64,000 nucleotides of DNA from Patescibacteria group bacterium (lineage in GTDB: Bacteria; Patescibacteriota; Patescibacteriia; SG8-24), in contig JAYEJB010000059.1 in the NCBI GenBank assembly GCA_034716415.1, forward strand, positions 68-64,067. Direction: 5' to 3'. How positions within the stretch are numbered: position 1 is the first letter of the stretch; each line of letters starts with the position of its first letter. The notes below the pieces were generated by a model. It was not told the DNA's origin, did no database searches, and worked only from the letters and a program-made list of their open reading frames with translations. This document shows, one piece after another, positions 3,172 through 37,252 of this stretch. The translations under genes and the position numbers were made by a program.

Positions 3172-3256
3172 TCTCCCCTTGTCATTGCGAGGAGCGGAGC
3201 GGCAATCCCGGCGGGATTGCTTCGTCGGCGGCGGTCTCCTCGCAATGACAAGGGAA
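3172..3256. repeat. GTCATTGCGAG...CTCGCAATGAC hairpin repeat, copy A of 4
   Basis: Perfect long inverted repeat CCTTGTCATTGCGAGGAG..GGCAATCCCGGCGGGATTGC..CTCCTCGCAATGACAAGG; family members at 16626, 17390, 37150. Confidence 0.85.
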
Positions 3257-3290
3257 TGGTGGGAAAAACAGGAAAAGAATAGAGGTCAAG

Positions 3291-3358
3291 AAATACAGGA
3301 GTACAGAAGTTTGAGAGTTTAAAAAATACTTCTGTACTTCTATACTCCTGTACTCTTC
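3291..3358. repeat. CAGGAGTACAGAAGT...ACTTCTGTACTCCTG hairpin (copy 1 of 2; other at 43297-43372); probable terminator of the 3368-4417 gene
   Basis: Inverted repeat read directly; sits just 3' of the minus-strand gene's stop codon. Confidence 0.7.
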
Positions 3359-3367
3359 CTGACCCCG

Positions 3368-4417
3368 TCACTGATACTGGATGAAGACGGGTTGCGGTGT
3401 CAGATCAAGGATCTCGGCCGGAGTCAATACGGGAAGGCCGTAATTGAGACGGTCGTTCTTGTAGAAAATCTTGAACCCGGTGAATTGGACCGGATACGGT
3501 ACGATGTAGGAATTGTACGAACCGAATTTCTGCCACGGTGGCCCCCAACCGTCCATGTCCATCACGACCTGCACCTCCGGCGTGGGTTCTATGCCGGTCG
3601 CGTTCGTTACCATCGGACGGGTGTAGCGATGGACGATCAGAACCTTAGGGGGCAGACCGCCGGCCTGAACCAGCCCGGACAGGTATCCGATCGCGGCGTT
3701 CACGTCCGTGGCATCGACGGAACCGACCCTCTGACCGGGCAGGCCGCCGTACTTCATGTTGAATTCCGGATCTATCGCCAGGTGCACCTGCGGCAGGACC
3801 AGATACTTCTCCAGCGCCTTGATCTCGCCCTGAAGGTCGGCCAGTCCCGACTGGACTTCCAGGATGACGATACCGTCGATCTTCTCGGCCATCGCTATCG
3901 CTTTGTCGATTTCCTTATCCGGCATGCGTAGCCGGTACTTGCCGTCCCTGCCCGCACCCGCCTGCGCGACTACCGCGATGTAATCGATCGCCGGCTGGAC
4001 CGGCGTCTCGGGGTCCGCCTCTTCCCAAGCAGCGACCTCGCGCGCCAGCATCTCAAGCATGGTCTCTTCGACGTATTCTCCGAGCACCCCCATACCTCTG
4101 GAATAGAAATTGCCGTAATACGCGACGATACGCTTGAACGGCAGGATAGCTCCGTATTCCGGATAGACTGATTCAGCCGGCCACAATTTTCCCTCATCGG
4201 TGCCGGTACCCACATCCATATGCGCGAGCCGTGCCAGCCTGCGATCATAGTCGAACCTGTCGAGCGTCGGCTCCGACGGCACGGTCGGACCTTCGACGGT
4301 CGACAACCCCCCGTCTCCGCGATCACGCAAGAGCGAAAACAGCGCGACCCCAAACAACGCCAGCGACAGCAACGCGACACCTCCAGCGACCAGCATTTTC
4401 GGAGTCGGTCTTTTCAT
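3368..4417 (-). CDS. exported/membrane-anchored hypothetical protein (possible TIM-barrel glycosidase-like fold)
   Basis: 349 aa; N-terminal hydrophobic helix after MKRPTPK; no catalytic motif I can name; function not established. Confidence 0.5.
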   Translation of the reverse strand: MKRPTPKMLVAGGVALLSLALFGVALFSLLRDRGDGGLSTVEGPTVPSEPTLDRFDYDRRLARLAHMDVGTGTDEGKLWPAESVYPEYGAILPFKRIVAYYGNFYSRGMGVLGEYVEETMLEMLAREVAAWEEADPETPVQPAIDYIAVVAQAGAGRDGKYRLRMPDKEIDKAIAMAEKIDGIVILEVQSGLADLQGEIKALEKYLVLPQVHLAIDPEFNMKYGGLPGQRVGSVDATDVNAAIGYLSGLVQAGGLPPKVLIVHRYTRPMVTNATGIEPTPEVQVVMDMDGWGPPWQKFGSYNSYIVPYPVQFTGFKIFYKNDRLNYGLPVLTPAEILDLTPQPVFIQYQ

Positions 4418-4484
4418 GTATATATAACCGCAGACTTTGTCTACCTGAAATATATCAGGTGCAGGTCATACGGTCGATATCAAT

Positions 4485-4520
4485 GAAAAACCAGACATCT
4501 GATAGATGTCTGGTTTTTCA
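4485..4520. terminator. bidirectional intrinsic terminator hairpin
   Basis: AAAAACCAGACATC-TGATA-GATGTCTGGTTTTT: 10-bp perfect stem with A-run 5' and T-run 3'; lies 3' of the 1019-aa gene. Confidence 0.7.
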
Positions 4521-4635
4521 TGGCTCAACACCGTGAACAACGTTAGAACCATAATTCAACAGAGTGAAGAATATATTTACATCCCAGATTTGAGGGAATA
4601 CGCGATGGTTTAGTTTTACCCTACCCCGCGTTACA

Positions 4636-7600
4636 CTATTTCTCTTCGACAATATCCTCAAATTTCCAGAATATACTGCTTCCTTCGCGAACCAAATCAT
4701 CAATAAGCGTATAGGTGGCCTTTTTTGTTTCCGAAGTATTGTAAAGGGTTCTTAAAGCTTCGACCCATTCGTCATCATACATGAAAGGCATACGCATTTT
4801 TTTACCGCGAACACCACCCTCAAGTAAAAACAGACGGGCAATTTCCAGAGTATCCGACGGACTCGCTTCGGCAAGTTTATCAATGTTTTTTACCAAAGCG
4901 TAATCCCAATCCAATGCACCTTGCGTTTTGCTCAAGGTTTCTTTCACTTTTTCGGCAAGCCATTTAGGGGCAAAAAGATTTTTCTCAAAATTAATCCAGA
5001 AACCAAAAGACTCAAAAATTTTCGAATCCGTATGATTTTCAAGTACCCATTCCCATAATTTGACAAGTCTTTCTCTGCTTTCCGTGTCTTTACTCAATTG
5101 CTCGTTTGCGCGCGCGTTATCACCCGATACGAACATTCTGCCAATAAAACTGATCAAATCAGCTTGTCTTTCGACATCTTTAGCCCAAAACTTTTTAAAA
5201 AGCTCGTCATCAAAACCAAATCTTTTGTGATAAACGATAAAAGCCAATGCGACATGAACCGCAATGCCTTCGTCGGGGTCTTTAAAATATCGACGATTTG
5301 AATCCTCATCGCCCGTTAAATCAAGACCGCGTTCATACAATTTCTGAAATTCGGGATCAAAGAAAATTTCCTCGTAAAGATTGTTGGCCAGATATCCTTC
5401 CCATGAGGCGAGATATAGATGTTGATTATTGCTGTCGGTGGGGAATATTTGGGGTAAAAGTCCATGAATCCAATCTTTATCGCGGAAGTAGAAAGACGGC
5501 AGATAATGACCGAACATGAACATCAAAGCGCGCGTGTTTTCTTCTTTCAAAACCGTTTCGTAAACCCCTTTGACCTCATTTTTGATTTTTACACTATCCT
5601 CTTTTGAGAATTGTTTACCGTCCTGATAAACGAATAAAACAAAAGCCTGGAAAGCCCGTCCTCGAACGGTGTTTATGGCAATGGTAAACGGATCGGTAAC
5701 TTGATACTCTTCTTTGTCTCCCGCCAAGCGCGTCTTAGAAACGGCGGTCTCCAATTCTTCGTCTTTCGGCTCGGGATCAGGTGATGAAAGCAGATACTCG
5801 ATTATATCGAATAGTTTGTCCCTATATTTATCAAAATCAATAACGGGTTGTCCTTCATTTTCATTCAACAATTCTTGTAAGACATCGGTCATTGAAGAGT
5901 GCACACCCGACCAGCTCGCAAGCCACGAGTCATAAGTTTCTCGCTCACGCTTTTCATAATCAAATGGCTTTTCTTTGCCCGATTTAACAACTGTAACCAT
6001 AATCTCGATTAAGTTATCCCAATCCAAGTCTTTAGCAACCGTTTTATCGACCTTCATGGCCTCTTGAATTCCCCTGAAAAATGAGTAAGTGTAATGTTCA
6101 TCGAGCACATCTCTATCGAAAAACAGGCTTGAGTTTGCCAGATAATCCTGCAAACGCTTGGCTATATCAGTACGTAATTGTGAACCGACTCCCTCAGCAT
6201 TAAGGGGATTAAGAAAATCATCATGAGTGTTTTGTACATGCAATACATCGGGTTTCCATTCATTTTTCAATTTTCCAATAATGTCGACGATTGTAAGTTT
6301 ATTAAACTCGTCTTGCGATATAGCTCCTCTCGGTGATACCGTTCCGCCTCGCATTGTTCCGATTGAGGTTTCGGGAATAAATTCGGAATCGCATTTGTTG
6401 CCGAAAATTTTCTCGCATTTATTCTTTTCATCCGCGGAAAGAAATTTGCAAATTGAAGACAAAATCTGCCATCCGTCACGTTTGTGCCACTGTTCTTCTT
6501 TTTTGTCTTCAAGCGATTTTCCGAAATATTGAAGTACTTTAGCGATAAATTCGCGTTGATAATCCGAATCGAAAACACCAAAAGACTTTTTTAAGGCTTT
6601 TTTATATTCGGTTCCCGACTCGATTTCATAATAATTTTTACCCGCTTCCATCACCTCAAACAATCTTGAAAACGCTTGCTTCAACCTATCTTGAAAGGCG
6701 TTCGGGCAAAGACTCATAACGTAAAGTTGCAATCGCCACATTGAACGACATTGAGGCAAGGTTTGAAAGCATTTATCGTAAATGAAAATCGCGGAATCAG
6801 TGTTTTGACAATTACTGCCGATAAGATTTTGAGCCAGTTTTTTAATACTTGCGGCCAATTCTTTGACATTTTCTCTATCTGATCTAAGGCGTTCGTTTTT
6901 CAAATCGAGCGTGAAAAAATCGACATCATAGAAAGAAAACATATCTTCAATCTCGAAAACGGCTTTTTCGTCGGATCTTTTATCACCCAATTTGACGATC
7001 TCGGATATTGTCAGACAGGCAAGTTCAAGTGCTTTTTCGGCATTTTCATCGTTAACGTTAACCAGATATTCAAAGATCTTGGTGTAAGATAAATCTTTAA
7101 AGTAGAATGGATTATCGGCAAGATAACCGTGCGAATTTTTATTGAAGGCCTCTTTCGTTTTTACCGCAAACACAGCTTTCGCCAGAATCAATAAACCGTC
7201 ATATTTTTTATTCTTTGCCAAAGTCGCAAACATTTTTTCATATTCAGAGCCCCAATCGTTGAAAATACTCATCAGCTGAACCCATTTGTCGTCACGAATT
7301 TTAACAACCATCCTTGCCAATTCTTCCGCAGGTAATGAACCGCAAATATGCAAAAATTGATCGACAACTTCGGGATTGAAATTATCTTTTGAAATTTCAA
7401 CTGAAAGCATACTATCAACCACTTCTTTCGGCTTCTTATCGGCAACCTTAACGAGATAATTCAATTCGGGAGTGCGATAACCGTATCGTGTGGGATCTTC
7501 GGATTTTTCTTTTATGACATTCAGAAAACCGTTTTGCCATAGAAAATCGAGCCAATTCTCATCGGCTTTTGTGTAAAAGTATTGCTTTGCATCGAGATTC

Positions 7601-7695
7601 TCTGAAATCAAATTTGACACAGCTTGAATCTGACTACCATCAGGCGCTTTTGACAATATTTCATCTATTCTTTTATGTAATTCAATCTGAGTCAT
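4636..7695 (-). CDS. large (1019 aa) predicted all-alpha hypothetical protein, last gene of AT-rich island operon
   Basis: Long uninterrupted ORF in AT-rich DNA; no Walker A, DExH or other catalytic motif seen; Lys/Glu/Asp/Phe/Tyr-rich helical composition. Confidence 0.7.
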   Translation of the reverse strand: MTQIELHKRIDEILSKAPDGSQIQAVSNLISENLDAKQYFYTKADENWLDFLWQNGFLNVIKEKSEDPTRYGYRTPELNYLVKVADKKPKEVVDSMLSVEISKDNFNPEVVDQFLHICGSLPAEELARMVVKIRDDKWVQLMSIFNDWGSEYEKMFATLAKNKKYDGLLILAKAVFAVKTKEAFNKNSHGYLADNPFYFKDLSYTKIFEYLVNVNDENAEKALELACLTISEIVKLGDKRSDEKAVFEIEDMFSFYDVDFFTLDLKNERLRSDRENVKELAASIKKLAQNLIGSNCQNTDSAIFIYDKCFQTLPQCRSMWRLQLYVMSLCPNAFQDRLKQAFSRLFEVMEAGKNYYEIESGTEYKKALKKSFGVFDSDYQREFIAKVLQYFGKSLEDKKEEQWHKRDGWQILSSICKFLSADEKNKCEKIFGNKCDSEFIPETSIGTMRGGTVSPRGAISQDEFNKLTIVDIIGKLKNEWKPDVLHVQNTHDDFLNPLNAEGVGSQLRTDIAKRLQDYLANSSLFFDRDVLDEHYTYSFFRGIQEAMKVDKTVAKDLDWDNLIEIMVTVVKSGKEKPFDYEKRERETYDSWLASWSGVHSSMTDVLQELLNENEGQPVIDFDKYRDKLFDIIEYLLSSPDPEPKDEELETAVSKTRLAGDKEEYQVTDPFTIAINTVRGRAFQAFVLFVYQDGKQFSKEDSVKIKNEVKGVYETVLKEENTRALMFMFGHYLPSFYFRDKDWIHGLLPQIFPTDSNNQHLYLASWEGYLANNLYEEIFFDPEFQKLYERGLDLTGDEDSNRRYFKDPDEGIAVHVALAFIVYHKRFGFDDELFKKFWAKDVERQADLISFIGRMFVSGDNARANEQLSKDTESRERLVKLWEWVLENHTDSKIFESFGFWINFEKNLFAPKWLAEKVKETLSKTQGALDWDYALVKNIDKLAEASPSDTLEIARLFLLEGGVRGKKMRMPFMYDDEWVEALRTLYNTSETKKATYTLIDDLVREGSSIFWKFEDIVEEK

Positions 7696-7697
7696 AA

Positions 7698-8240
7698 TTA
7701 TTTATTTTTGAATTTAAAATATTTTCCCAAATGCAGAATAAAACCAGTACATAGTTTATCAAAATCTTCTTCACTGATAACTTTAAGAGATTTGTTATCA
7801 GGATCTAGTAAAGTATTAGCATGTCCAATTGCCGAATCTTTAAAGTGTGCAAAATCATTAAAAAAATCTTTATAATTACGTATTGTCTCACACACCTGCT
7901 TTGCTTCATCTGAATCACTTCTTTTGGGTACGCATTTCAGAAATTTTAAGCAATTAGCTTCGAAATGCCCGTCAACCAACTCTCGAATTGATCCAGAACA
8001 ATGCTCTTTCCAAAATTTATCGTTTGATTTGGTATCCTCACTTTTAAATATGCTTTGGGCATTAAAGATAATATCTTCCGGTTTTACGTTTTTTTTATAA
8101 TTACCCATAATCCAGACCAAATGAATGTTAACGTTAACAATTTCAATCACCGATTTTGGTAGATTAACAACATCGTATTCCGCACCATTTGTGGAAATAC
8201 TTTTTTGTTCCGCTAATATTGGATCAAGGGTTTTACTCAT
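7698..8240 (-). CDS. 180-aa hypothetical protein (island operon gene 3)
   Basis: ORF; its start ATG overlaps the Vsr stop as ATGA, and its stop lies 2 nt before the 1019-aa start; no family recognised. Confidence 0.6.
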   Translation of the reverse strand: MSKTLDPILAEQKSISTNGAEYDVVNLPKSVIEIVNVNIHLVWIMGNYKKNVKPEDIIFNAQSIFKSEDTKSNDKFWKEHCSGSIRELVDGHFEANCLKFLKCVPKRSDSDEAKQVCETIRNYKDFFNDFAHFKDSAIGHANTLLDPDNKSLKVISEEDFDKLCTGFILHLGKYFKFKNK

Positions 8241-8650
8241 TTATTTTCTTGCAACTTATTTAGTATTTTTTCCACGGTTTTATCAAATTTTTTCTTTATT
8301 TCATGCTCCCAAATTCTGATAACCGTCCAGCCTTTATTTTTGTAATACCGAGTGACTTCTTTGTCCCGCTCTTTGTTGCGAGCCATCTTGGCCTCCCAGA
8401 ATTCTCTGCGGGTTTCTGGCATTGAACCGTGCTCTTTGCAACCGTGCCAAAAGCAAGAATCCACGAATATTACGGTTTTCAATTTCGCCAGTACGATATC
8501 GGGTTTTCCAAAATGTTTGGTCGAATTTTTGCGGTATCGATAACCGGCTTTCCATAACTCTTTACGCAAGGCGATCTCGATTTTACTGTCCTTATTTCGG
8601 ACTTTGGACATTATTTCGCTTCGTTTTTGTTTGGAAAACTTATCGGCCAT
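8237..8650 (-). CDS. vsr: very-short-patch-repair (Vsr)-like endonuclease
   Basis: 137 aa; GKPDIVLAKLKTVIFVDSCFWHGC matches the Vsr catalytic core (GKPDIV..AIFVHGCFWHGH); C-terminal W..IRIWEHE region. Confidence 0.85.
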   Translation of the reverse strand: MADKFSKQKRSEIMSKVRNKDSKIEIALRKELWKAGYRYRKNSTKHFGKPDIVLAKLKTVIFVDSCFWHGCKEHGSMPETRREFWEAKMARNKERDKEVTRYYKNKGWTVIRIWEHEIKKKFDKTVEKILNKLQENK

Positions 8651-8653
8651 AAT

Positions 8654-8893
8654 TTATTTCGTAAAGCGAACTTGCAAATTAAGTTTGATGAACAAGTCAC
8701 CGTTTTCCTCATAAACGGTTCCGTATCCGTGACGAGTTGCACTCGGCGACTCCATTCTGGTGTGATTGAACAAATAATCCCTGAAAGCTTCGGCATTGTA
8801 CAAGTGATAACAAACCACCTCGCCGTCTTCGCGAACCACAATAACTCCTCCGTGAGCGCGCAAATTACCATCCCAAGCACTTGCGGGTACCAT
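8654..8893 (-). CDS. 79-aa hypothetical protein (island operon gene 1)
   Basis: ORF stop lies 3 nt upstream of the Vsr ATG; intermediate GC; no family recognised. Confidence 0.4.
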   Translation of the reverse strand: MVPASAWDGNLRAHGGVIVVREDGEVVCYHLYNAEAFRDYLFNHTRMESPSATRHGYGTVYEENGDLFIKLNLQVRFTK

Positions 8894-8901
8894 ATAAAAA
8901 T

Positions 8902-8966
8902 GGGGTCAGGTCTTGTATTTTAACATTTTTGATATCTGGTAATGATACTATGTTAGACTTGACCCC
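8902..8966. repeat. Inverted repeat GGGGTCAGGTCT / AGACTTGACCCC bracketing a possible TGnTAAAAT -10 for the island operon; third direct copy at 9234-9246
   Basis: 13-bp imperfect inverted repeat separated by ~40 bp immediately 5' of the 79-aa start; GGGGTCAGGTCTT recurs at 9234. Confidence 0.5.
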
Positions 8967-9040
8967 GAAGCACATTCCCGCGTCAGCAAAATGCTCGCCA
9001 AGGAGCGGGAGAGGGCAAGAGTCAAGATGTGACCCCTATT

Positions 9041-9205
9041 TTAGTGAAGTATTGCCCAAAGACCAATAGCGACTGGCCATAAAAAAACGATATAAAGAAA
9101 AGTAAAAATATTTTCTGGAAACGGTGCGTCAATATATCCGACCCGCCAGAAAAATACTCCTATTGCAAGATAGCTTATTGCGATTAAAAATATTTTTATC
9201 TTCAT
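9041..9205 (-). CDS. 54-aa hydrophobic (two-helix) small ORF, below the ORF-track length cutoff
   Basis: My own translation: MKIKIFLIAISYLAIGVFFWRVGYIDAPFPENIFTFLYIVFLWPVAIGLWAILH; AT-rich; flanked by GGGGTCAGGTCT direct repeats. Confidence 0.25.
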   Translation of the reverse strand: MKIKIFLIAISYLAIGVFFWRVGYIDAPFPENIFTFLYIVFLWPVAIGLWAILH

Positions 9206-9410
9206 CACTCACTTTATTAAATTTTGCTTGGGGGGGGTCAGGTCTTTAATTGTCGGATTTTCGACCTTAAAATCTAGCCAAAATGGTACTCACTGCAATT
9301 TTTGAGACCCGACTCCACACGATAAACAATTTAGCATAGCTACAACAAAAAACCACCACAAAGTGATGGTTTTTTGACTGAACGCATATGGGTCGCCACA
9401 CACGTTCACT

Positions 9411-9444
9411 CATGGCTCCGAGGTGACGATTCGAACCGTTCTCC
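9411..9444 (-). other. degenerate copy of the tRNA-Asn 3' end (putative att-site remnant)
   Basis: TGGCTCCGAGG is identical to the acceptor/CCA region of tRNA-Asn at 16360-16370, followed by a T-arm-like GATTCGAAC; does not fold into a full tRNA. Confidence 0.5.
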
Positions 9445-9484
9445 TGAAATTCAGAACCTAGCTCTAAGAATCTCGTGGTTCGCC

Positions 9485-14714: not shown

Positions 14715-14751
14715 GCAAAAAACGCCGACATTGGCGTTCTTTGCGCGGGCA

Positions 14752-16359: not shown

Positions 16360-16434
16360 GTGGCTCCGAGGGCGAGATTCGAACTCGCGACCAATTGGTT
16401 AACAGCCAACTGCTCTACCACTGAGCTACCTCGG
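16360..16434 (-). tRNA. tRNA-Asn (anticodon GTT)
   Basis: Minus-strand read TCCGAGGTAGCTCAGTGGTAGAGCAGTTGGCTGTTAACCAATTGGTCGCGAGTTCGAATCTCGCCCTCGGAGCCA folds as a cloverleaf; anticodon loop CTGTTAA; CCA encoded. Confidence 0.85.
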
Positions 16435-16625
16435 AATATCTTGTTTTTTACTTAGCATGGCTACGATCGGCCACGGCCACGCTTATCACGACTTGTCCCC
16501 CGAAGCTTTACTTGTCCTCCATAGCTTTAGCGAAGGAGGAGCGAAGGGGGAAGCTACCTCGGAATATGCTCTGGCGAAAGGAATATTAACATAATAACCC
16601 GATTTTGCAAGAGCTGGAATGAGAC

Positions 16626-16746
16626 TGTTGCACAGCCTCCTTTGTCATTATGAGGGAGCGGAGCGACCGCGGCAATCCCGTTGGTTTAAGTCCGAACACG
16701 GGATTGCTTCGACCTTCGGTCTCGCAATGACAAAGGAGGCTGTGCA
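16626..16746. repeat. GTCATTGCGAG-family hairpin repeat, copy B (extended outer stem TTGCACAGCCTCCTTTGTCATTATGAGGG...CTCGCAATGACAAAGGAGGCTGTGCAA)
   Basis: Inverted repeat read directly; shares GGCAATCCCG..CGGGATTGCTTCG core with copies A, C, D. Confidence 0.85.
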
Positions 16747-16891
16747 ACGATCTCAAAATAGACATCCGGCAGTCCGCGTGGGATACTGCCCCTACGGCCG
16801 TCAGGCCTATTTTTTGAAGCTCATTCCACAAGGAGGTCTTTTGATAGACGGAAAACAGATATGGCAGGCTATCCTGAAGGACAACGCCTGT

Positions 16892-17344
16892 ATGGAGGAG
16901 ATGCCGGAAGGGGAACAACAGGACGTCATGCGACAATACATCGAGCGTCGCCTGCTCACCGTGTTCGGAAACCTCATCGACGCACCGGCGACCGCGACGA
17001 ACGTCTATCGCGCGCGCATCGCCCACGCGTCAGCCTTCATTCTTGAGGGCTGGTTCCTGCGGATGATAGAGGCCTCGACCGAATACAGGGAGAACCCGCT
17101 TAGGCGAGCTTTCCTCCTATACGAGATTCAGCTTCGTAGTTACGCCATGCTTGAGAGGCTCGCTCCGCTTCAGGGTGACATCTTCAACTTCATGCTGATG
17201 GACGGCAAGTCCGACAGGAAACATCTCCTAGAGCTCGGCGTGACCGCGGAAAACATCTGGCAATGCGTCAGGGGCGAGATGACCATCGGCGAGCTATTCG
17301 CCGGACAGCCCTACGTCTTCCTCAAACTCTACGGCAAAAGCTAA
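16892..17344 (+). CDS. hypothetical protein (~150 aa from MEEMPEGEQQ)
   Basis: Plus-strand ORF; the longer track ORF (16619) begins inside the hairpin repeat, so I chose the first Met downstream; followed by a clean terminator. Confidence 0.5.
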   Translation: MEEMPEGEQQDVMRQYIERRLLTVFGNLIDAPATATNVYRARIAHASAFILEGWFLRMIEASTEYRENPLRRAFLLYEIQLRSYAMLERLAPLQGDIFNFMLMDGKSDRKHLLELGVTAENIWQCVRGEMTIGELFAGQPYVFLKLYGKS

Positions 17345-17345
17345 G

Positions 17346-17370
17346 ACCGCCCTTTCGGGCGGCCTTTTTA
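17346..17370 (+). terminator. intrinsic terminator
   Basis: GACCGCCC-TTTC-GGGCGGCC followed by TTTTTA. Confidence 0.75.
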
Positions 17371-17389
17371 TCTATTCTCCCCTTTCCTA

Positions 17390-17487
17390 TCGTCATTGCG
17401 AGACCGGAAGCCACGGTAATCCCGTCGTCACGAGCCGAAATGACGGGATTGCTTCGTCGGCTGCGGCCTCCTCGCAATGACAAAGAA
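17390..17487. repeat. GTCATTGCGAG-family hairpin repeat, copy C
   Basis: CGTCATTGCGAGACCGG..GGTAATCCCGTCG..GACGGGATTGCTTCGTCGGCTGCGGCCTCCTCGCAATGACAAAG. Confidence 0.85.
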
Positions 17488-17518
17488 GGGTGTCTCCGCC
17501 CCTTCTCACCTTCTCGCT

Positions 17519-18898
17519 CTAATAATCCCTCAACTTGATGATGTCCGGATGTTCTTTTATCTTCTCCAGCGCTTTCGCTTCGATCTGTCTGATACGTTCC
17601 CTGGTGACATCGAACTCCTGCCCGACCTCTTCCAGTGTGTGACTGACACCATCGATCAGACCGAATCGCATCTCCAGGATCTTCTGCTCCCGGGGCGACA
17701 ACTCCTGGATGATCTCTTTCACGTAATCTTTCAAAAGCTGCAACGCGGCGGCGCGGTTCGGCGCGACGTTCTTGACGTCCTCCACAAAGTCAACGAGTGT
17801 CGAATCCTCGTCGTCCTCACCGACCGAAGTCTCCAGCGAGACCGTATCCTGCGAAATCTTGATGATGTGCCGCACCTTGTCGACCTCTTCCCCCATCTCC
17901 GCGGCGATCTCCTCGGGAAGCGGCTCGCGACCGAGGTCCTGGATGAGCTGCCGTTCGATCTGCTGGAACCGATTGATCGTCTCGACCATGTGCACGGGAA
18001 TACGGATGGTCCGGGACTGATCCGCGAGCGCCCGCGTGATCGCCTGTCTGATCCACCACGTCGCGTAGGTCGAAAACTTGTACCCTTTACGATACTCGAA
18101 CTTCTTGACCGCGCGGAACAATCCGATGTTGCCTTCCTGAATGAGGTCGAGCAGTGACAGCTGCTTGCCGACGAACTTCTTCGCGATCGATACCACCAGA
18201 CGCAAGTTCGCTTCGATCAGCCTCTTCTCGGCCTCGCGATCGTTGCGCTCCTTGCGTTTGGCGAGCGCGACCTCCTGTTCGGCGTTCAACAGAGGTATCT
18301 TGCCGATCTCGCGTAAGTACATCTGAATAGAATCCGCGGAGATGTCCGTCAAGTCGAAACGCTTCTTTTCTTTGCTCATCCTGATCTGATCCAGAAGCTG
18401 CTCACGATCTTCCTTCCGGCCGATAATCCCCTCTTTCATCTCGATGACGCCGATGCCGATGCCGTCCAATTCATCCAGGAACTTCTCATAGAGATCGGTG
18501 TATTCCTCAAGATCGTTAAAGACGTACAGAACTTCCGGCTCCGTGATGAATCCGCGCTGCTGACCCTTTTCGATCAATACGGCAATCCTTTCCAGCGTCG
18601 GCGGCGCGGATTTCTCCCGTTTTGTCGCTCTGTGTTTGACCGGAGCTTTCTTCTTCGAGACGACCTTCTTAGCTGGCTTCTTCACGGCCTTCTTCTTCGG
18701 GACGGCTTTCTTCTTCGGGACGGCTTTCTTCTTCGAGACGGCTTTCTTCTTCGAGACGACCTTCTTAGCTGGCTTCTTCACGGCCTTCTTCTTCGGGACG
18801 GCTTTCTTCTTCGAGACGACCTTCTTGGCCGGTTTCTTCACGGCCTTCTTCTTCGGAGCGGCCTTCTTCTTCGTCGTTTTCGTTGCTTTCTTCGCCAT
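17519..18898 (-). CDS. rpoD: RNA polymerase sigma-70 factor RpoD with N-terminal Lys/Ala-rich histone-H1-like repeat tail
   Basis: 459 aa; N-terminus ([18 protein letters not shown])n; sigma regions 1.2-4 with [13 protein letters not shown] (region 2.4) and [23 protein letters not shown] (region 4.2 HTH). Confidence 0.9.
18640..18890. repeat. nested tandem DNA repeats (21-bp GACGGCTTTCTTCTTCGRG subunits inside ~100-bp units) encoding the RpoD lysine-rich tail
   Basis: Direct tandem repetition visible in the sequence; coding, in frame. Confidence 0.8.
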
Positions 18899-24155: not shown

Positions 24156-24173
24156 ACGATTATTCCATTCCGG

Positions 24174-25745: not shown

Positions 25746-25775
25746 ACCGACGATGGGGCAGGAAGGGTCGAGCTG

Positions 25776-25835: not shown

Positions 25836-25849
25836 ACTCAATTTCCTCC

Positions 25850-29350: not shown

Positions 29351-29354
29351 TATA

Positions 29355-30818: not shown

Positions 30819-30822
30819 ATGA

Positions 30823-31122
30823 TTAAGAGAAAACCGCCTTTACCTTCAGCATGTCGTCCTCGCTTTCCGGGAACGAATCCACGACCTGGTCTCGCACTCC
30901 TTTCGCGCATGGCACGGCTTCATCTTCGCGTAACACATTCAGGACGGGCACGCTGTGGCTCATGGGTTCCGTATCTTCGACATCGACTTTCGACAACTTA
31001 CCGACATATTCAAGAACCGACGAGATATTCTCGCGGAAAGACTCCTTCTCGTCATCCGCCAGCTCCAACCTGGCCAGGCCGGCGATCTTTTCGACTTCTT
31101 CAGAGGTGAGAGACATATGCAT
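30823..31122 (-). CDS. gatC: Glu-tRNA(Gln)/Asp-tRNA(Asn) amidotransferase subunit C
   Basis: ~98 aa from MHMSLTSEEVEKIAGLARLEL; typical GatC N-terminus; the upstream extension in the track ORF reads through a hairpin repeat. Confidence 0.8.
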   Translation of the reverse strand: MHMSLTSEEVEKIAGLARLELADDEKESFRENISSVLEYVGKLSKVDVEDTEPMSHSVPVLNVLREDEAVPCAKGVRDQVVDSFPESEDDMLKVKAVFS

Positions 31123-31135
31123 CAGTAGATAAGGT

Positions 31136-31205
31136 GACGGAGCGGGGAAAGGGGACAAAACGGAGAAACATCCTTCCTCCGCCCCCTCCGCTTCCTCCGC
31201 TCCGA
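31136..31205. repeat. GGAGCGGGGAAAGGGGACAAAACGGAG...CCTCCGC hairpin (same family as 25776)
   Basis: Read directly in the gatC / ligA spacer. Confidence 0.6.
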
Positions 31206-33278
31206 TTACTTCATAACCATAGCCAAAAAGTCAGGCTCCTTCAAGACTGTCACGCCGAACTTCTTCGCCTTATCCAACTTCGACCCCGGACTCTCCCCCA
31301 CCACCAGGAAATCAGTACTTCCGGAAACAGAACCGACGACCTTGCCGCCCAGGACGCGTATCCGATCCTTAGCCTCATTACGGGTCATTTTCCGCATGGT
31401 TCCGGTAAGCACGAAGGTCTTTCCCGTAAGCGGACCGGCCGTCTTCCTGCCGCTGACCGACTGGACTTCCATGTATTCGAGCAGACGATCTACCAGTCTG
31501 GAATTCTTCTTGTCGCTGAAATAAGCTGCCACGCTTTCGGCTACGATCGGTCCGACTCCCTCGACAGAAGCCATCCTCTCTTGTGGTGCCTCCCGCAGGG
31601 CTTCGATGCCGCGGAACTCATCCGCCAGATCCATCGCGGTCTGCGTGCCCACATGTCGGATACCGAGCGCGTAGATAAACTTGCCGAGCGGCACCTTGCG
31701 GCTGGTCTTGATGGAAACGATCACGTTCTCGGCGGATTTCTTTCCAAAACCCTCAAGACCCGTCAGATCCGCCTCGGTCAGCGTAAACAGATCCGCCGCG
31801 TCGCGGACAAGCCCTTCTTCCATGAACTTTTCGATCATCTTGCCACCGACCCCATCCGCATCGATCCCGCCTTTCGATATGAAGTGCATGATACCCCGCA
31901 GTGAACGGGCATAGCAGTCCTTATTGGCGCAGTAATGAGCTACTCCGCCTTCATCCTTCCTGACGGCGGAGCCGCAGAAAGGACACTTCTTGGGCATCCT
32001 GAACTTGCGCTCATCACCGTTCCTGGCCTCTTCGATGACCCTGATCACCTTCGGAATGATGTCACCCGCCTTCTCGATGACGACGGTATCCCCTATCATG
32101 ACGCCCAGCCGTCCGATCTCATCCATATTGTGGAGCGTCGAGTGCGTAACGGTCGTTCCGGCGACCTTGACCGGACGCATGACAGCGACCGGAGTAAGAG
32201 CTCCCGTGCGTCCGACCTGAATGCGGATATCCTCTATCACGGTAGTCGCCTGTTCCGCCGGAAACTTGAAAGCGACACTGCCTCGCGGCGCCTTTCCGAC
32301 GACGCCGAGCCGCCCGAACAACGCATCGTCATTCACCACGACGACGATACCATCGATCCAATACGGCAACCTGTCGCGCTTCTTGTGTATCTTCCGATAG
32401 TGGTCGCCGATCTCGCCCGGCGATTCCACCCGAATGCTGAGTGGATTTATCTTGACCCCCAACAGCTTCATCAGTTCATGGGCCTGTTCGTGAGTACCGA
32501 GACCCAAGTCACCGAGTAACGCGTAACCGAAGAAGTCCAGACCTCTCTGCCGCGCGACGGCCGGATCCAACTGTCGGATACTGCCGGCGGCCGCGTTCCT
32601 GGGATTGGCGAACAACGGCTGCCCTGCTTTCTCCTGCTCCACGTTCAGCCGGTCAAAAATACCCTTTGGCATGAACACCTCACCCCGCACCTCGATCCGC
32701 CCGGCCAATCCACTCATCACCTCACGGAACCTGTCGACATCAAGCCGCTCACCGAACTTCCTGATGAACGCATCGACCTCCTTCTGTTCCGGTCGTCGCA
32801 ACCGCAACGGAATCGCTTCGACTGTCTTGAGATTGTTCAGGACATCCTCACCCACTTCTCCGTCTCCCCGGGTCGCACCGACCGCAAGTAGCCCGTCTTC
32901 GTAGACAAGAGAGACCGCGAGACCGTCCATCTTGAGCTCCACATAATACTCTTCCGGGGTCTCGCCGACATGCTTGCTGATCCGTAAGTTCCAGTCTTCG
33001 AGTTCATCCGACGAAAAGACATCCTCCATCGAGAGCATCCGCGTCTCGTGCCGGACCTTCCTGAACCTGTCGAGCGGTTTTCCCTCGACCCGCTGCGTGG
33101 GCGAATCTGACGTGACCAGGTCCGGATACTCACGTTCCAGCCCGAGAAGTTCATGTTTCAGGGAATCGAGCGCCGCTTCGGATATCTCCTGCTTATCGAG
33201 GACATGATAAAGATAGCGATGATGGTTTATCGCTTCTTTCAGCTGGTCAATACGTTTTTTCGCTTCTTGTTTGGTCAT
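31206..33278 (-). CDS. ligA: NAD-dependent DNA ligase LigA
   Basis: 690 aa; KMDGLAV adenylation motif, Zn finger CPFCGSAVRKDEGGVAHYC, HhH and C-terminal BRCT region. Confidence 0.95.
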   Translation of the reverse strand: MTKQEAKKRIDQLKEAINHHRYLYHVLDKQEISEAALDSLKHELLGLEREYPDLVTSDSPTQRVEGKPLDRFRKVRHETRMLSMEDVFSSDELEDWNLRISKHVGETPEEYYVELKMDGLAVSLVYEDGLLAVGATRGDGEVGEDVLNNLKTVEAIPLRLRRPEQKEVDAFIRKFGERLDVDRFREVMSGLAGRIEVRGEVFMPKGIFDRLNVEQEKAGQPLFANPRNAAAGSIRQLDPAVARQRGLDFFGYALLGDLGLGTHEQAHELMKLLGVKINPLSIRVESPGEIGDHYRKIHKKRDRLPYWIDGIVVVVNDDALFGRLGVVGKAPRGSVAFKFPAEQATTVIEDIRIQVGRTGALTPVAVMRPVKVAGTTVTHSTLHNMDEIGRLGVMIGDTVVIEKAGDIIPKVIRVIEEARNGDERKFRMPKKCPFCGSAVRKDEGGVAHYCANKDCYARSLRGIMHFISKGGIDADGVGGKMIEKFMEEGLVRDAADLFTLTEADLTGLEGFGKKSAENVIVSIKTSRKVPLGKFIYALGIRHVGTQTAMDLADEFRGIEALREAPQERMASVEGVGPIVAESVAAYFSDKKNSRLVDRLLEYMEVQSVSGRKTAGPLTGKTFVLTGTMRKMTRNEAKDRIRVLGGKVVGSVSGSTDFLVVGESPGSKLDKAKKFGVTVLKEPDFLAMVMK

Positions 33279-33281
33279 GGT

Positions 33282-33372
33282 GGAGTTTAGGAGCTAAGGA
33301 GTTTAGAGGCTCAAGAGCAATTCTTTTAAAAAATTCGTCCCTTAGCTTCTCGGCTCCTTAGCTCCTAAGCTT
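33282..33372. promoter_or_regulatory. leader-region TTAGGAGC/GCTCCTAAG inverted motif array 5' of ligA (paralogous to 2618-2702)
   Basis: GGAGTTTAGGAGCTAAGGAG...CCCTTAGCTTCTCGGCTCCTTAGCTCCTAAGCTTCG. Confidence 0.4.
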
Positions 33373-33375
33373 CGA

Positions 33376-34191
33376 TTATGGACAACTTATCGGCCGGTTT
33401 CCCTTGACGAGAGAACATTCACTGAATACCACGAAATCAAAGATGCCGGAAAGCGGCGCGCCATGCAGCATACTGGCCAGAAGACGACGTCTCGTATCAC
33501 CGAATTCACCGGTCACATCTATCTCTATGCGGCCCGGCAGCGCCACCGGATTCGATCCGACATCATAAGCGCGGACGGTCACATTGTCGAGTGTGGCGTT
33601 TTTCGCGCGGAGACGCACCTTGTAGAGCTTGTTGGACGGTCCGGTGGATATCGTAGCCGGCCTCGAAGCGAAGTCATAGGTCCGGGTCTCGGAGCTCGGC
33701 GCCCAGGCGATCGGTGCTCCCGGTATCCAACTGACCATACTCAACGTAAGGACCGAACAGCCGCCACATCCGTCACTCCAGTCTATCTCTACGTTGGCGA
33801 TCGGTGTCGCGATTGTCGGAGCTTCCGGACTGAACAGGTTCACTTCGATGAACTCATCTTCAGGAATGGTCGCGTAGACGATCTCTTTCGTGTCCGAGAC
33901 GACACTCGACCAGGTCGAACCGGACGGTACGGTCCGGAGCGCATAGGACCCAGGCAGATTACCGGTCTTTCTGGCGTTATATAATGACTCCTCGATACCC
34001 GTTTCAGCCGCGTAGAACGCCACAATTGACTGGTCGATGACCTTAGTCTGCTGTAGCAGGTTCAGCACCAGCGAACCGAGCCCTACCGAACCGATCATGA
34101 CAGCGCTCAACACGAGAAGCGAAAACAGCAAGACCGCTCCGCGCCCCTGCCCGACTCCGGACGATCTCGTTTTTTTACCGGAAATAATCAT
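33376..34191 (-). CDS. membrane-anchored hypothetical protein at the distal end of the pilin cluster
   Basis: 271 aa; N-terminal TM (AVLLFSLLVLSAVMIGSVGLGSLVL); no prepilin GFxxxE motif. Confidence 0.5.
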   Translation of the reverse strand: MIISGKKTRSSGVGQGRGAVLLFSLLVLSAVMIGSVGLGSLVLNLLQQTKVIDQSIVAFYAAETGIEESLYNARKTGNLPGSYALRTVPSGSTWSSVVSDTKEIVYATIPEDEFIEVNLFSPEAPTIATPIANVEIDWSDGCGGCSVLTLSMVSWIPGAPIAWAPSSETRTYDFASRPATISTGPSNKLYKVRLRAKNATLDNVTVRAYDVGSNPVALPGRIEIDVTGEFGDTRRRLLASMLHGAPLSGIFDFVVFSECSLVKGNRPISCP

Positions 34192-34814
34192 CGCTCGTAT
34201 CTACGGCTGGTGGCCGTGGTCTGTAAATAAGTATAGGTGCGCTCATCAATCTTGCGTGACGCGCTTTCGAATGACATCACGATCGTGACAGAGGGCTGGA
34301 TATTCGACAGGTAGGAGCCGGCCGCGGAATTGAACGCGAACGGATCCACGTCAGGACTGACGTAAAAACTGACGGACCTGACCCTGATGCCTTTCGGGCT
34401 GATGGGGGCGGGCGGATTGACGCCGACCGCCACCAGCAGACACGGACGACTGTTCTCGTTCGGACAATCGGCTTCAGTGCTTGCGTCGCTCTCGAAAAAC
34501 CTGATCTGATCCCCCTCACTGTCGATCAGAGCGAGCTCCGTATCCGGCGTACCGAGCGGTTGGGCACGGCCGGCATAATAATCCAGGTCGATCACACCCG
34601 TCCTGACTTCTCTGACCATCGCCTCCATCGTATACCTGGCGCTGGCCTGCATGCTTTCGAGGTCGAACACCTTCCTCTGGGTGCGACTGGCCAACAAGAA
34701 AATGTCTGTCGCCGCGACGATGAGCGTCGAAAAGATCGTGATAGCGACGATCATCTCCATCAGCGTGAATCCACGACAGCTACTCCTCACGGCCTTTCGC
34801 TCATGCATGCGCAT
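34188..34814 (-). CDS. type IV pilin-like / pseudopilin
   Basis: RGFTLMEMIVAITIFSTLIVAA prepilin N-methylation motif; start placed at the Met after the upstream CCCGTCTTGCC tandem repeats. Confidence 0.65.
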   Translation of the reverse strand: MRMHERKAVRSSCRGFTLMEMIVAITIFSTLIVAATDIFLLASRTQRKVFDLESMQASARYTMEAMVREVRTGVIDLDYYAGRAQPLGTPDTELALIDSEGDQIRFFESDASTEADCPNENSRPCLLVAVGVNPPAPISPKGIRVRSVSFYVSPDVDPFAFNSAAGSYLSNIQPSVTIVMSFESASRKIDERTYTYLQTTATSRRYER

Positions 34815-34909
34815 ACCCAAAACACGCGGAAAGACGCGAAAAAACAATCCCGTCTTGCCCCGTCTTGCCCCGTCTTTCCACATTTTGCCCCGTCTTGCCC
34901 CGTACATAA

Positions 34910-35566
34910 TCACCGCCAATTAAACATCCGTTCGACCACGTGAATCTCGCGCTCGTCTCCTCCCGCACTGGTCCACCTCACGTATGATCTGACGTCAATC
35001 CCGATCTTTTCGGTGGCGCAACTTTCACCGTCGGCCTTCAGTTCGTAATTGATGAAGTTGGACGTACTGCCGGCCACGACACTACAAAGCGCCCTGGTGT
35101 GCGTTATCCGACGAAAAAGCGTGGTATCGGTGCCAGCTGGCTGAGGAATCCCCTGAAGAAACATTCCCGGCTGTTCGGGTCCGCCGGTCACGACTTGTCT
35201 GTATACGGCGGTCTCGACATCATCGAGACTGCCTGCCCCGAAATCCATCGACCAGGACTTAGTGGCGGCATCGAATATGACGACGCCCGAGTAATCGAAG
35301 CCCGCACCCTCCAGACCCTGATCCCAGTCGTTTCCGGCCAGCCAGTTGGAATCGCGCATGGCCCTGACGACCTCCACGCCCTCTCTAGCCAGATTTGACG
35401 CGATGAGCCTGTTATCACTCTCCTTGGCCGCGTTGATCGAGCTTTGGACCAGCGTCAAAGCGGCCCCCACCGCAGTGACGATGATTCCTGAAGCCACGAT
35501 CGCCTCAAGCAAGCTCTGCCCGGCGCTACGCGCTTTCATATTTTTATGTGCGCTCCTGGAGAACAT
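34910..35566 (-). CDS. type IV pilin-like / pseudopilin
   Basis: 218 aa; N-terminal AGQSLLEAIVASGIIVTAV (G-x-S-L-L-E class III leader-like). Confidence 0.55.
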   Translation of the reverse strand: MFSRSAHKNMKARSAGQSLLEAIVASGIIVTAVGAALTLVQSSINAAKESDNRLIASNLAREGVEVVRAMRDSNWLAGNDWDQGLEGAGFDYSGVVIFDAATKSWSMDFGAGSLDDVETAVYRQVVTGGPEQPGMFLQGIPQPAGTDTTLFRRITHTRALCSVVAGSTSNFINYELKADGESCATEKIGIDVRSYVRWTSAGGDEREIHVVERMFNWR

Positions 35567-35573
35567 AGTGATG

Positions 35574-36206
35574 TCATTCCACTGAAACCAGTCCGGAAAT
35601 GCGGTTCACCGTCACTGATTGCTGCGTACCGGTATGTTGATGCTCGAGAACGATCGTCGCGATGCCGTTTACGATAGAATCGTTGAAATACATCTTGGGT
35701 TTCGGCGGTTCAAATATGATATCCAGAACGTTCGCGTCATTCGGGGTCACTGACAGGATATTGACGAACGGCCCCGATGATATCGCATCGAACCTGACCG
35801 CCTCACCTGACTCATATCGCTTGCTTCCGTTCGTGTCGGCGAATACGATCAGCTCACGATTTTCGCCGGAAAGAGTCGATATCCTGACTCCCCACGCATC
35901 AGGTATGTCCTTCGTGCAGACACCGCCGCCGCATTCCGAATCATTCCCTGACGGACAGACCTTGCCTTCGTCCGCACCGCCATGACAGAAAAAGATCGAA
36001 TATCCGGCAACGGCCTGCGTCTGCGCTCTCCTGACGGTCGATGCGACCAGCCGCGCAGACACCCTTAATTCATCACCTTGAGCACCGGCCCTGAAATTCG
36101 CCACGGCCATCGCAGTGATTACCGCGAATATCGACAGCGAAATCAACATCTCGATGAGTGTGAATCCGCGCTGCCCTCGTTTTCTTCGCATGAATGATTG
36201 CGACAT
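35574..36206 (-). CDS. pseudopilin (GspH/FimT-like)
   Basis: 210 aa; RGFTLIEMLISLSIFAVITAMAV prepilin motif. Confidence 0.7.
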   Translation of the reverse strand: MSQSFMRRKRGQRGFTLIEMLISLSIFAVITAMAVANFRAGAQGDELRVSARLVASTVRRAQTQAVAGYSIFFCHGGADEGKVCPSGNDSECGGGVCTKDIPDAWGVRISTLSGENRELIVFADTNGSKRYESGEAVRFDAISSGPFVNILSVTPNDANVLDIIFEPPKPKMYFNDSIVNGIATIVLEHQHTGTQQSVTVNRISGLVSVE

Positions 36207-36207
36207 A

Positions 36208-37008
36208 CTATAGCAGACCCATATACCAGCCCAGTATCACCTGACCGTAAAGCAAGGTGAATACAGTTCCCGCCGCCAGAAACGTACCGAACGGCAACTC
36301 GCTTTTCATGGTCTTCCTCTTGATGACCATCAACGAAACACCGATCAATGCTCCGGCGACATAAGCGATGAACAGCGCGACCAGGATTAACGGATATCCA
36401 AGGACTGCCCCCATGAACAGACCTAGATAGACATCACCGCCGCCCACCCATTTACCCTTGGACAATAGCCGCTGCAGCCAGAAGAATCCCCCGCCGATCG
36501 CGACACCGATCACAAGATGGGCGATATCCATCCCCAGTGCCACGTTCGCCGCAAGTGCGAGCACTGTAGCCGGAAGCGTAATCGAGCGCGGTATGAGCAT
36601 GTAGCGCAGATCGTAGACGAATACGATCACCAGTACGGAAACCACGAACCAGCCAAGAAGTAAGTTCGCGAACGCGACCGCCCCGATAGACTCGGCTCCG
36701 ACCGGAAAGGATGTCAATGCAACCATCAGAAACAACAGGCCCGTGACTGCCTCAATAAAGAAATATGACGACCCTATCGGCAGGAAACAGTAGCGACACT
36801 TCCCTCTCAAGAGAAGGTAGCTGAATAACGGGACTAGATCGAAGACCGACAGTCGATGCCTGCATTTCGGACAATAGGACCTGCCGTAAAGGAAGCTTTC
36901 CTTCGTCCGAAGGCGCCAGAGGACCGCGTTCAAGAAACTGCCGATCATGGCCCCAAACGCAAAAATAAATACCTGTAAAAATGGTAGCATACGACTGAAT
37001 GATACCAT
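36208..37008 (-). CDS. pilD: prepilin peptidase (A24 family)
   Basis: 266 aa; N-terminal CPKCRH..CRYC zinc motifs, polytopic, GGGDVYLGLFMGAVLG catalytic-Asp region. Confidence 0.85.
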   Translation of the reverse strand: MVSFSRMLPFLQVFIFAFGAMIGSFLNAVLWRLRTKESFLYGRSYCPKCRHRLSVFDLVPLFSYLLLRGKCRYCFLPIGSSYFFIEAVTGLLFLMVALTSFPVGAESIGAVAFANLLLGWFVVSVLVIVFVYDLRYMLIPRSITLPATVLALAANVALGMDIAHLVIGVAIGGGFFWLQRLLSKGKWVGGGDVYLGLFMGAVLGYPLILVALFIAYVAGALIGVSLMVIKRKTMKSELPFGTFLAAGTVFTLLYGQVILGWYMGLL

Positions 37009-37043
37009 GATTCTTACCTATATTATACCGGGGTTGAGGGTGT

Positions 37044-37138
37044 GGGAGCGTAGGGGTTAGAGAGTGAGAAAGTGAGAGGGTGAGAAAGATTCCAATCTCC
37101 GCTTTGTCCCCTTTCTCCACTCAATTTACCCCTTCTCC
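37044..37138. repeat. inverted copy of the GGAGCGGAGAAAGGG hairpin family plus (GTGAGA/GTGAGAAAG) short repeats
   Basis: CTCCGCTTTGTCCCCTTTCTCC is the reverse complement of the 25776/31136 motif. Confidence 0.6.
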
Positions 37139-37149
37139 AGCTCCCCACC

Positions 37150-37252
37150 TTTTTGTCATTGCGAGAAGGCCACAGCCGACGAAACAATCCCGTCGGCTTA
37201 AGCCTAAACCACGAGATTACTTCGGCCTTCGGCCTCGCAATGACAAAAAAGG
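37150..37252. repeat. GTCATTGCGAG-family hairpin repeat, copy D (most diverged)
   Basis: TTTGTCATTGCGAGAAGG..CAATCCCGTCGG..CTTCGGCCTTCGGCCTCGCAATGACAAAAAAGG. Confidence 0.8.

Follow-up and report, generated by a model that had tools for sequence, protein, structure and literature searches.

The Locus

The stretch analyzed here, called the window, comprises 64,000 nucleotides (positions 68 to 64,067) of contig JAYEJB010000059.1 from a Patescibacteria group bacterium (assembly GCA_034716415.1) and contains four near-palindromes of 85-120 nt each, copies A to D. Copy A lies near recQ, copy B beside a tRNA-Asn gene, copy C behind rpoD, whose product finds its best matches in Uhrbacteria-like Patescibacteria, and copy D behind the pilin gene pilA. 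What these hairpins are, and how they relate to the repetitive extragenic palindromic (REP) sequences of other bacteria, is the subject of this text. When aligned, the copies have a common layout: (T/C)GTC-ATTGCGAG, a variable linker, GCAATCCCG, a variable center, CGGGATTGCTTCG, a second variable linker and CTCGCAAT-GAC(A/G).

A preceding reading of the window, made from the sequence only, had reported four copies sharing a long-stem hairpin of about 85-120 nt. The copies are present at the places given, and folding bears out the hairpin: each copy forms one long hairpin on either strand, with z-scores of −4.5 to −11 against shuffled controls. The wider coordinates of the sequence-only reading include pairing of the flanks beyond the tag-to-tag cores used here, which amounts to 17 bp in B, 5-7 bp in A and D and none in C. 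The inner stem CAATCCCG/CGGGATTG, thought to be common to all copies, is intact in A and B, whereas in C (TAATCCCG) and in D (GAGATTAC) one of its arms is degenerate. A CTTCG..CGG element that had been singled out does exist, but it is simply the 3′ arm itself, made up of GATTGCTTCG and a small local hairpin. That differences between copies preserve pairing is true of the distal inner stem and of the local hairpins (GACC..GGTC vs. GGCC..GGCC in B and D), not of the linkers in the arms.

Copy A (3180-3250) is an inverted dimer, TGTC-ATTGCGAG ... CTCGCAAT-GACA, with the shortest center of the four, GCAATCCCG-G-CGGGATTGC; pairing of its flanks reaches about 3175-3255. Its neighbors are the 3′ end of a 349-aa gene of unknown function (3368-4417, minus strand) and a promoter-like site (3102-3074) ahead of a small open reading frame (ORF) and recQ. 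An adjoining 85-aa ORF (2743-3000, minus strand) gave a sub-threshold match to the recombinase zinc beta-ribbon (PF13408, E 0.066); this sole recombinase-like hint near a copy is probably due to chance.

Copy B (16643-16732) has a degenerate left arm (TGTCATTATGAG), the center GGTTTAAGTCC and, in its 3′ arm, the local hairpin GACCTTCGGTC. A 17-bp palindromic extension specific to B widens the element to 16627-16748. Copy B folds with −76 kcal/mol and a z-score of −11. The copy lies between the tRNA-Asn gene (16361-16435, minus strand), 190 bp away as had been stated, and a plus-strand ORF ending at 17344. Copy C (17391-17482) carries the head CGTC on the left and TGTC on the right, and its inner stem is lengthened by copy-specific pairs (CCCGTCGTCA..TGACGGG). 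It is situated between the rpoD stop (17519, minus strand) and a terminator-like hairpin at 17347-17362, the latter shared with the convergent gene.

In copy D (37154-37245, with flank pairing to about 37148-37252) the heads are TGTC, the center is GGCTTAAGCC and the 3′ arm contains the local hairpin GGCCTTCGGCC; the degenerate side of its inner stem is the one on the right arm. The sequence-only reading had placed it directly 5′ of pilA, which goes back to a misread strand. Because the pilin gene (37367-37831) runs on the minus strand, copy D is downstream and not 5′ of it; the copy comes after the gene's conserved hairpin and is upstream of the gene for prepilin peptidase.

The 11-mer GTCATTGCGAG, or its complement CTCGCAATGAC, is exact in seven of the eight window arms; the left arm of B reads GTCATTATGAG. 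With up to one mismatch the pair matches eight times in the window against 1.7 times expected from shuffles, and the eight matches are arranged as four correctly spaced inverted pairs. Seven arms have the head TGTC and one has CGTC, the tails are CCC (CCCG), and the arms contain ATTGC...GCAAT save for point changes in arms of B, C and D. The right arms pair off as A with C and B with D. A fifth copy was found in the window neither by a covariance model scan with filters off nor with a regular expression for generic heads. The four copies score 46-55 bits with this model (A 52.4, B 49.7, C 51 and D 55), which is not independent evidence because they were part of its training set.

Distribution and Anatomy of the Family

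The pattern GTCATTGCGAG-N40-70-CTCGCAATGAC was run on IMG/VR and on a collection with one genome per species, and found at least 120 loci in each. Among the matches listed, the isolate hosts include many Bradyrhizobium and sphingomonads together with Pedobacter, Mucilaginibacter and Flavobacterium, so that the isolate genomes by themselves span two phyla. Hosts represented by metagenome-assembled genomes (MAGs) among these matches include Rickettsiales, Legionellales/Coxiellaceae, Burkholderiales, Desulfobacterales, Chloroflexota and Patescibacteria, and further Planctomycetota, Cyanobacteria, Margulisiibacteriota, Zixibacteria and Clostridiaceae. Records of cultured phages have almost no copies, and only eight plasmid records have any (Novosphingobium, Methylosinus, Methylocystis, Legionella).

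Further arrangements of arms occur in phage contigs, L052 (1830-1870, 3690-3727, 4265-4305, 5814-5850 and 10700-10990) and L116 (690-890, 3350-3580 and 5500-5670). There, solitary arms fill entire gene-gene spacers, the arm standing immediately ahead of the next start codon. Elsewhere in these contigs a single arm is repeated in tandem with a 41-nt period, the terminal word CGCAATGAC forms arrays, and right ends adjoin left ends, such as CTCGCAATGAC-N10-GTCATTGCG at 5814 in L052. In L053 (8960-9040) the central spacer of one element holds five tandem copies of a 16-nt unit (CAGACTGCTTATGGCC).

The anatomy of the element was determined on 264 non-redundant copies (528 arms). The heads of the arms are CGTC in 66% and TGTC in 30%, and the tails CCA in 55%, CTC in 22% and CCC in 7%. 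Every arm contains ATTGC...GCAAT, a stem opening with an A-T and a T-A pair; the complementary part comprises 5 bp and the interior spans 12-18 nt, most often 12 nt (39%) or 18 nt (20%). A unit of about 30-40 nt thus consists of the tag, ATTGC, the interior, which often holds a GCGNAGC mini-hairpin or a small hairpin specific to the copy, GCAAT and the tail CC(A/C). Linkers fall into a short class (CGNAGCG with any N), a long class (GAGCGNAGCGAC) and the copy-specific small hairpins. Two units form an inverted pair with the (C/T)GTC tags outermost and a short variable spacer between them (median 25 nt, range 8-67), and a right core is found within 140 nt for 289 of 330 left cores.

Ten single arms folded as single-stranded DNA gave z-scores of −2.0 to +1.1, only one reaching −2, and were thus no better than shuffles. 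The idea that each arm is an independent REP hairpin was therefore dropped; the stable structure is the whole dimer. Conservation extends no more than one or two positions past the core (a Y on the left, an R on the right); beyond ±2 nt the flanks are random and non-complementary, so that the long outer stem is a peculiarity of copy B.

In an alignment of 96 sequences the outer stem (P1) is invariant by construction, while the pair flanking it covaries (C-G 51 times, T-A 26 times). Three distal pairs of the inner stem (P3) also covary, with CCAG/CTGG in alpha-Proteobacteria, CGCA/TGCG in Bacteroidota, CCCG/CGGG in the window and CTCN/NGAG elsewhere. Linker positions are mostly unpaired. Linkers from one element resemble each other no more than those from unrelated elements do (0.445 vs. 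0.440), from which we conclude that the linkers are not kept complementary by selection or templating. The variants at the covarying positions are specific to lineages and recur in both inverted units, so that inverted duplication suffices to explain them, without selection on pairing.

Genomic Placement and Turnover

By crude ORF calls, 101 copies lie between co-directional, 31 between convergent and 19 between divergent genes. In two annotated plasmids the element begins 14 and 21 nt past stop codons, and window copies A, C and D sit behind gene ends. Target-site duplications are absent from the 264 copies: for k = 2-9 and offsets of 0-5 the frequency of direct repeats equals that of the control.

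Orthologous sites differ in what they hold. The spacer between a dioxygenase and a VOC gene contains the element in plasmid pNL2 of N. aromaticivorans and other GC-rich hairpin repeats in two related Novosphingobium plasmids. Of five phage contigs with a homologous spacer, three carry the element there and two do not. Two syntenic relatives of the window, L251 and L252, lack copy D in the pilA-pilD spacer and have no copy in their 35 kb. The slot that copy D occupies in the window holds in L251 (9735-9905) a different inverted repeat of about 170 nt (GGCGAGTTCTGGGCCGGG...CCAGGACTCGCC). Together with the same pattern in the Novosphingobium plasmids L249 and L250, this points to such slots as hot spots for several families of hairpin repeats.

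Among the relatives compared, the copy downstream of rpoD occurs only in the closest one, L242, whose RpoD is 93% identical. There an orthologous copy takes the equivalent place, flanked likewise by the rpoD stop and the same terminator; its ends are conserved, its interior has strongly diverged and its left arm is tandemly duplicated. Over the family the distance between central regions is 0.29 within loci and 0.51 between loci (p 8e-14). Whole elements are thus more similar within a locus than between loci, which indicates that the dimer is copied locally as a unit, spacer included.

Search for a Mobilizing Enzyme

The ORFs within 2.5 kb of about 260 copies cluster into families of phage structural proteins only, and no transposase recurs among them. 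Distant pairs of ends enclose ordinary genes and nothing transposase-like. The ORF between copies B and C has neither a Pfam match nor an HUH motif, and a Y1 transposase was found neither in the window nor adjoining copies. In later papers that cite PMC3733652, the description of the CGTC-tagged REPs discussed below, these repeats are linked to no enzyme.

In contig L211 (7140-7720) there is a gene for a Y1 transposase resembling the REP-associated tyrosine transposases (RAYTs), with HVH and YGAFSY motifs and GTAG-tagged REPs (GCATTCCGTAGGAATGC, GCATCCCGTTAGGGATGC) on both sides. It is located 3.7 kb from a copy of the CGTC type, and both classes of repeat coexist in this Bacteroidales MAG.

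Other Hairpins of the Window and Its Relatives

The window contains a second, unrelated palindromic family of two nearly perfect hairpins of about 95 nt (..ATGCACAGTTTGGRGYAAAACACAGACAGYCTGTT..) at 680-772 and 58353-58450, each followed by CTGTTTACYCCAAAAAAA. Both are intergenic and are the next-best matches of the covariance model (28.9 and 18.7 bits). Nesting of copy B in this family was considered and rejected, the shared words being 7-mers only. A further hairpin (48920-48991), built of repeated GGGAA(C/G)(A/G)GC words, is found where ORFs of 522 and 1448 aa on the minus strand meet; it overlaps the annotated start of the 1448-aa ORF, the true start of which may be further downstream.

Three of the four copies have next to them tracts rich in C and T on the plus strand (CCCCTTCTC, CTCAC repeats), at 37010-37150 and in the flanks of A (3160-3179) and C (17365-17390 and 17483-17520). 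Relative L251 has tandem GCTGTCG heptamers upstream of pilD, at the place equivalent to the C/T-rich tract of the window. Behind the pilin stop (37290-37366 of the window, minus strand; 9646-9730 in L251; 3706-3790 in L252) there follow GCTTCGTT..GGTTCGTGGCCGAATTCGGCAAT and a hairpin with compensatory changes. This stretch is kept in the three syntenic Patescibacteria contigs, unlike the remainder of the spacer, and may be a conserved 3′ untranslated region (UTR) or terminator module of pilA.

Interpretation

In 2013 Di Nocera, De Gregorio and Rocco described in BMC Genomics a large class of REPs without a known transposase, the CGTC-tagged REPs (PMC3733652). According to their paper, these units end in CGTC, often TGTC (CCTC being allowed), and have a stem of 8-9 bp beginning with an A-T and a T-A pair, a loop of 4-5 nt and a short tail, mostly CCA. 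They occur mostly as inverted dimers with variable spacers, some of which have complementary ends or small stem-loops, and heterodimers are frequent. They are located behind ORFs, between unidirectional or convergent genes, chiefly in alpha-Proteobacteria but also in Bacteroidetes/Chlorobi, Spirochaetes, Thermotogae, Rickettsia (RPE-4/6), Neisseria (dRS3), Coxiella and Micavibrio.

The sequence-only reading had recognized no named family. Defining features given in PMC3733652 are, however, present in the element: the terminal CGTC or TGTC tag and the A-T/T-A start of the stem; inverted dimers, mostly with heads outward and spacers of tens of base pairs, the layout also seen in the published dimer peptides; complementary ends or small stem-loops in some of the spacers, and frequent heterodimers; a place behind ORFs; no associated transposase; and alpha-Proteobacteria, Bacteroidetes, Rickettsiales, Coxiella and Micavibrio as common hosts. 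Most published tails fit CCA, which is also the most frequent tail over the family found here (55%), while the window copies deviate in having CCC tails and mostly TGTC heads. The hosts found here go beyond the five published phyla by Patescibacteria, Chloroflexota, Planctomycetota, Cyanobacteria and viral contigs. We therefore propose, with a probability of roughly two in three, that the window elements are a non-autonomous palindromic repeat of the REP type, either a member of the CGTC-tagged REP superfamily or a close variant of it. Of the MITE-like mobile hairpin (MITE for miniature inverted-repeat transposable element) that the sequence-only reading had offered as one possibility, an interspersed hairpin repeat of the MITE/REP kind, variable at orthologous sites, is what stands.

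Several findings weigh against this proposal. The arms have a stem of 5 bp and an interior of 12-18 nt rather than 8-9 bp and 4-5 nt, and none of the intragenic peptides encoded by REPs in PMC3733652 corresponds to the present variant. No mobilizing enzyme was found in the 64-kb window or near any of about 290 copies; a tblastn search of 2.1 Mb with an approximate IS200 TnpA sequence yielded a single RAYT, which has a GTAG REP from a different family at its sides. A clean empty site at high identity, which would define the exact insertion boundaries and any target motif, was not among the comparisons found, all of which are between diverged sequences (68-85% identity). When the window is compared with L242, the core proves more strongly conserved than the intergenic DNA around it, which could mean that purifying selection maintains a function in the host and that the element is not spreading selfishly. 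Finally, many host assignments depend on the binning of MAGs, which can mislead.

If the elements are CGTC-type REPs, they would spread at the DNA level by way of a folded single-strand hairpin or a cruciform. An enzyme supplied in trans would recognize the folded strand and cleave it at the conserved tag; the example of GTAG REPs and their RAYTs suggests that it might be an HUH/Y1-like nuclease. Phages and contigs resembling gene transfer agents could serve as vehicles between hosts. Where an element comes to lie in a 3′ UTR it would be co-transcribed, as expected for copy C between the rpoD stop and the terminator, and the long hairpin in the mRNA might then act as a passive stabilizer of the 3′ end or as a substrate of RNase III, like E. 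coli REPs. Such an effect at the RNA level would be a side effect and not the cause of the element's conservation.

The main rival is a DNA site beneficial to the host, a palindrome or cruciform which, like parS, is bound by a widely conserved protein and serves nucleoid organization, gyrase or IHF-like binding, replication or recombination. The invariance of the 11-12 bp core over many phyla argues for such a site, as do the symmetry at the DNA level, the duplex motif ATTGC/GCAAT, which occurs four times per element in alternating orientation, and the conservation of the core relative to the flanks in orthologous copies. It is because the 12-bp end is so strongly conserved that this explanation stays alive. 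The sporadic occurrence of the element, however, argues against it: close relatives lack it throughout 15-20 kb although their synteny is identical, plasmid records with copies are few, and other hairpin repeats take the same sites instead. Multiple copies, half copies and the tandem arrays of arms in phage contigs are also at odds with a host site, and no candidate binding protein is known. On balance we regard a host-beneficial site as unlikely.

Selection on RNA structure had been suggested by the sequence-only reading, and the elements could in principle be a structured RNA family, either a cis-regulatory element of 3′ UTRs or a small RNA (sRNA). The very stable hairpins fit this, as do the covariation of the outermost P1 pair and of the three distal P3 pairs, the compensatory changes in some of the copy-specific local hairpins and the position of copy C and its ortholog in the rpoD 3′ UTR ahead of the terminator; moreover, the literature considers REPs to be probably transcribed. 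The orientation of the copies, judged by the asymmetry of the arms, is nevertheless random relative to flanking co-directional genes (25 same, 33 opposite), and on the sense strand of 101 co-directional copies G:T mismatches (60) are not more frequent than A:C mismatches (62). Both strands fold alike, the complementarity of the linkers does not exceed chance, inverted duplication of lineage-specific variants accounts for the covariation, and copies B and D are outside obvious transcripts. Rfam 15 gave no match for the window copies and 18 typical loci, at the gathering threshold or at E ≤ 10. A structured RNA family is thus improbable.

A function as intrinsic terminator was rejected for want of a U-tract, T not being enriched at +3 to +10 in the 264 copies; a terminator scan flags the neighboring hairpin 17347-17362 and not the elements. 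A promoter was rejected on sequence grounds. The lengths of the elements show no 3-nt periodicity, and translations of the elements matched no family in Pfam or NCBIfam. With orientation unbiased, G:T equal to A:C and no Rfam match, there is no support for a strand-specific RNA or for a peptide, even though copies in 3′ UTRs must still be transcribed.

Integron attC sites are bounded by the R″ and R′ core sites, RYYYAAC and GTTRRRY. The element ends in YGTCATTGCGAG/CTCGCAATGACR without a GTTRRRY core site, and most copies are solitary rather than in cassette arrays, for which reasons an attC site was rejected. Highly improbable is a classical MITE derived from an insertion sequence (IS) with a DDE transposase and the same terminal inverted repeats, for despite such repeats, the small size and the intergenic multi-copy occurrence there are no target-site duplications (2-9 bp, all offsets examined), no transposase enclosed by distant ends, no related autonomous IS and no transposase family recurring near copies.

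Copied locally as dimers, turning over at orthologous sites and placed behind genes, without target-site duplication or cargo and symmetrical with respect to the strands, the elements are most likely selfish or structural DNA and not a new RNA gene. The window repeats should accordingly not be annotated as sRNA genes; they mark fast-evolving intergenic slots. They also explain spurious small ORFs, because their translations yield peptides such as ..HCERSEAIQ.. and ..DCFASLAMT. The element stands out chiefly for its huge host range and for a mobilizing enzyme that is still to be found. Its invariant 12-bp end over many phyla, its presence in minimal genomes of the Candidate Phyla Radiation and in viral contigs, the half-units and the tandem arrays of arms make it a convenient handle for phylogenetic profiling and for population-level searches for the mobilizing activity.

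Comparison With Known Systems

The closest family is CGTC-3, which we compared through a unit back-translated from the peptide VIAGLDPAIH published in PMC3733652. This unit would read GTCATTGCCGGGCTTGACCCGGCAATCCAT and have CGTCATTGC...GCAATCCA in common with the present arms. The stems deduced from the REP-encoded peptides given there are ATTCCCGC, ATTCTGAA-like, ATTGCCGGG and ATTCCGTGG, none of which equals ATTGCGAG... Classical CGTC-1 and CGTC-3 units also occur in a few of the element's loci.

A more far-reaching idea, which we consider doubtful, is that ATTGCGAG...GCAATCC represents a fifth branch of the CGTC repeats, not described before, in which the whole hairpin of about 85 nt is recognized and copied. 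This branch would still be spreading over at least ten phyla and phages by means of an as yet unidentified enzyme acting on single-stranded DNA, which would be either widespread or carried by phages. If this were true, the density of about 4 copies per 64 kb in a gene-poor Patescibacteria genome of roughly 1 Mb would mean that such genomes could expose the mobilization machinery of all CGTC REPs.

REPINs and GTAG REPs are reportedly mobilized by RAYTs (Bertels and Rainey, 2011; Nunvar, 2010). Like the present element they are inverted doublets of short units that form one long hairpin, with the doublet as the replicating unit; they cause no target-site duplications, are intergenic and leave singlets as remnants. 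They differ from it in the tag, which is GTAG rather than CGTC, and in their partner, no RAYT being flanked by the repeats described here. Pairs of REP and RAYT are, moreover, lineage-specific, whereas the present core is identical across phyla.

The REPs and bacterial interspersed mosaic elements (BIMEs) of E. coli are palindromic units arranged as inverted pairs behind genes, as here. Proposed roles are protection of mRNA 3′ ends, termination and protein binding. Their sequence is unrelated and GTAG-tagged, and they are associated with RAYTs and confined to enterobacteria.

Some other published sequences were compared and set aside. Br-REP1 and Br-REP2 of Bradyrhizobium (Hahn et al., 2016) are different sequences, and bll1319_ISGA, a "widely conserved sORF" (short ORF) of the same authors, is a fragment of a dehydrogenase. 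QMITE1/2 of Coxiella are unrelated, GTAG-based and provided with target-site duplications.

Searching the literature for the element's sequence, as DNA, as RNA or as peptide, brought up unrelated primers and nothing else. Among the known systems similar to it are dRS3/NIME of Neisseria and RPE-4 and RPE-6 of Rickettsia, which in PMC3733652 are classed as members of CGTC-1 and CGTC-4. They share with it the CGTCATT head and the AAT-CC tail but have other stems (ATTCCCGC and ATTCCGTGG). In addition, dRS3 units flank larger RS modules and act as integration sites of phages and IS elements, and RPEs are often found in frame inside genes, whereas the window copies are all intergenic. The element is accordingly taken here as a member, and perhaps a variant so far undescribed, of the kind of REP already known from PMC3733652.

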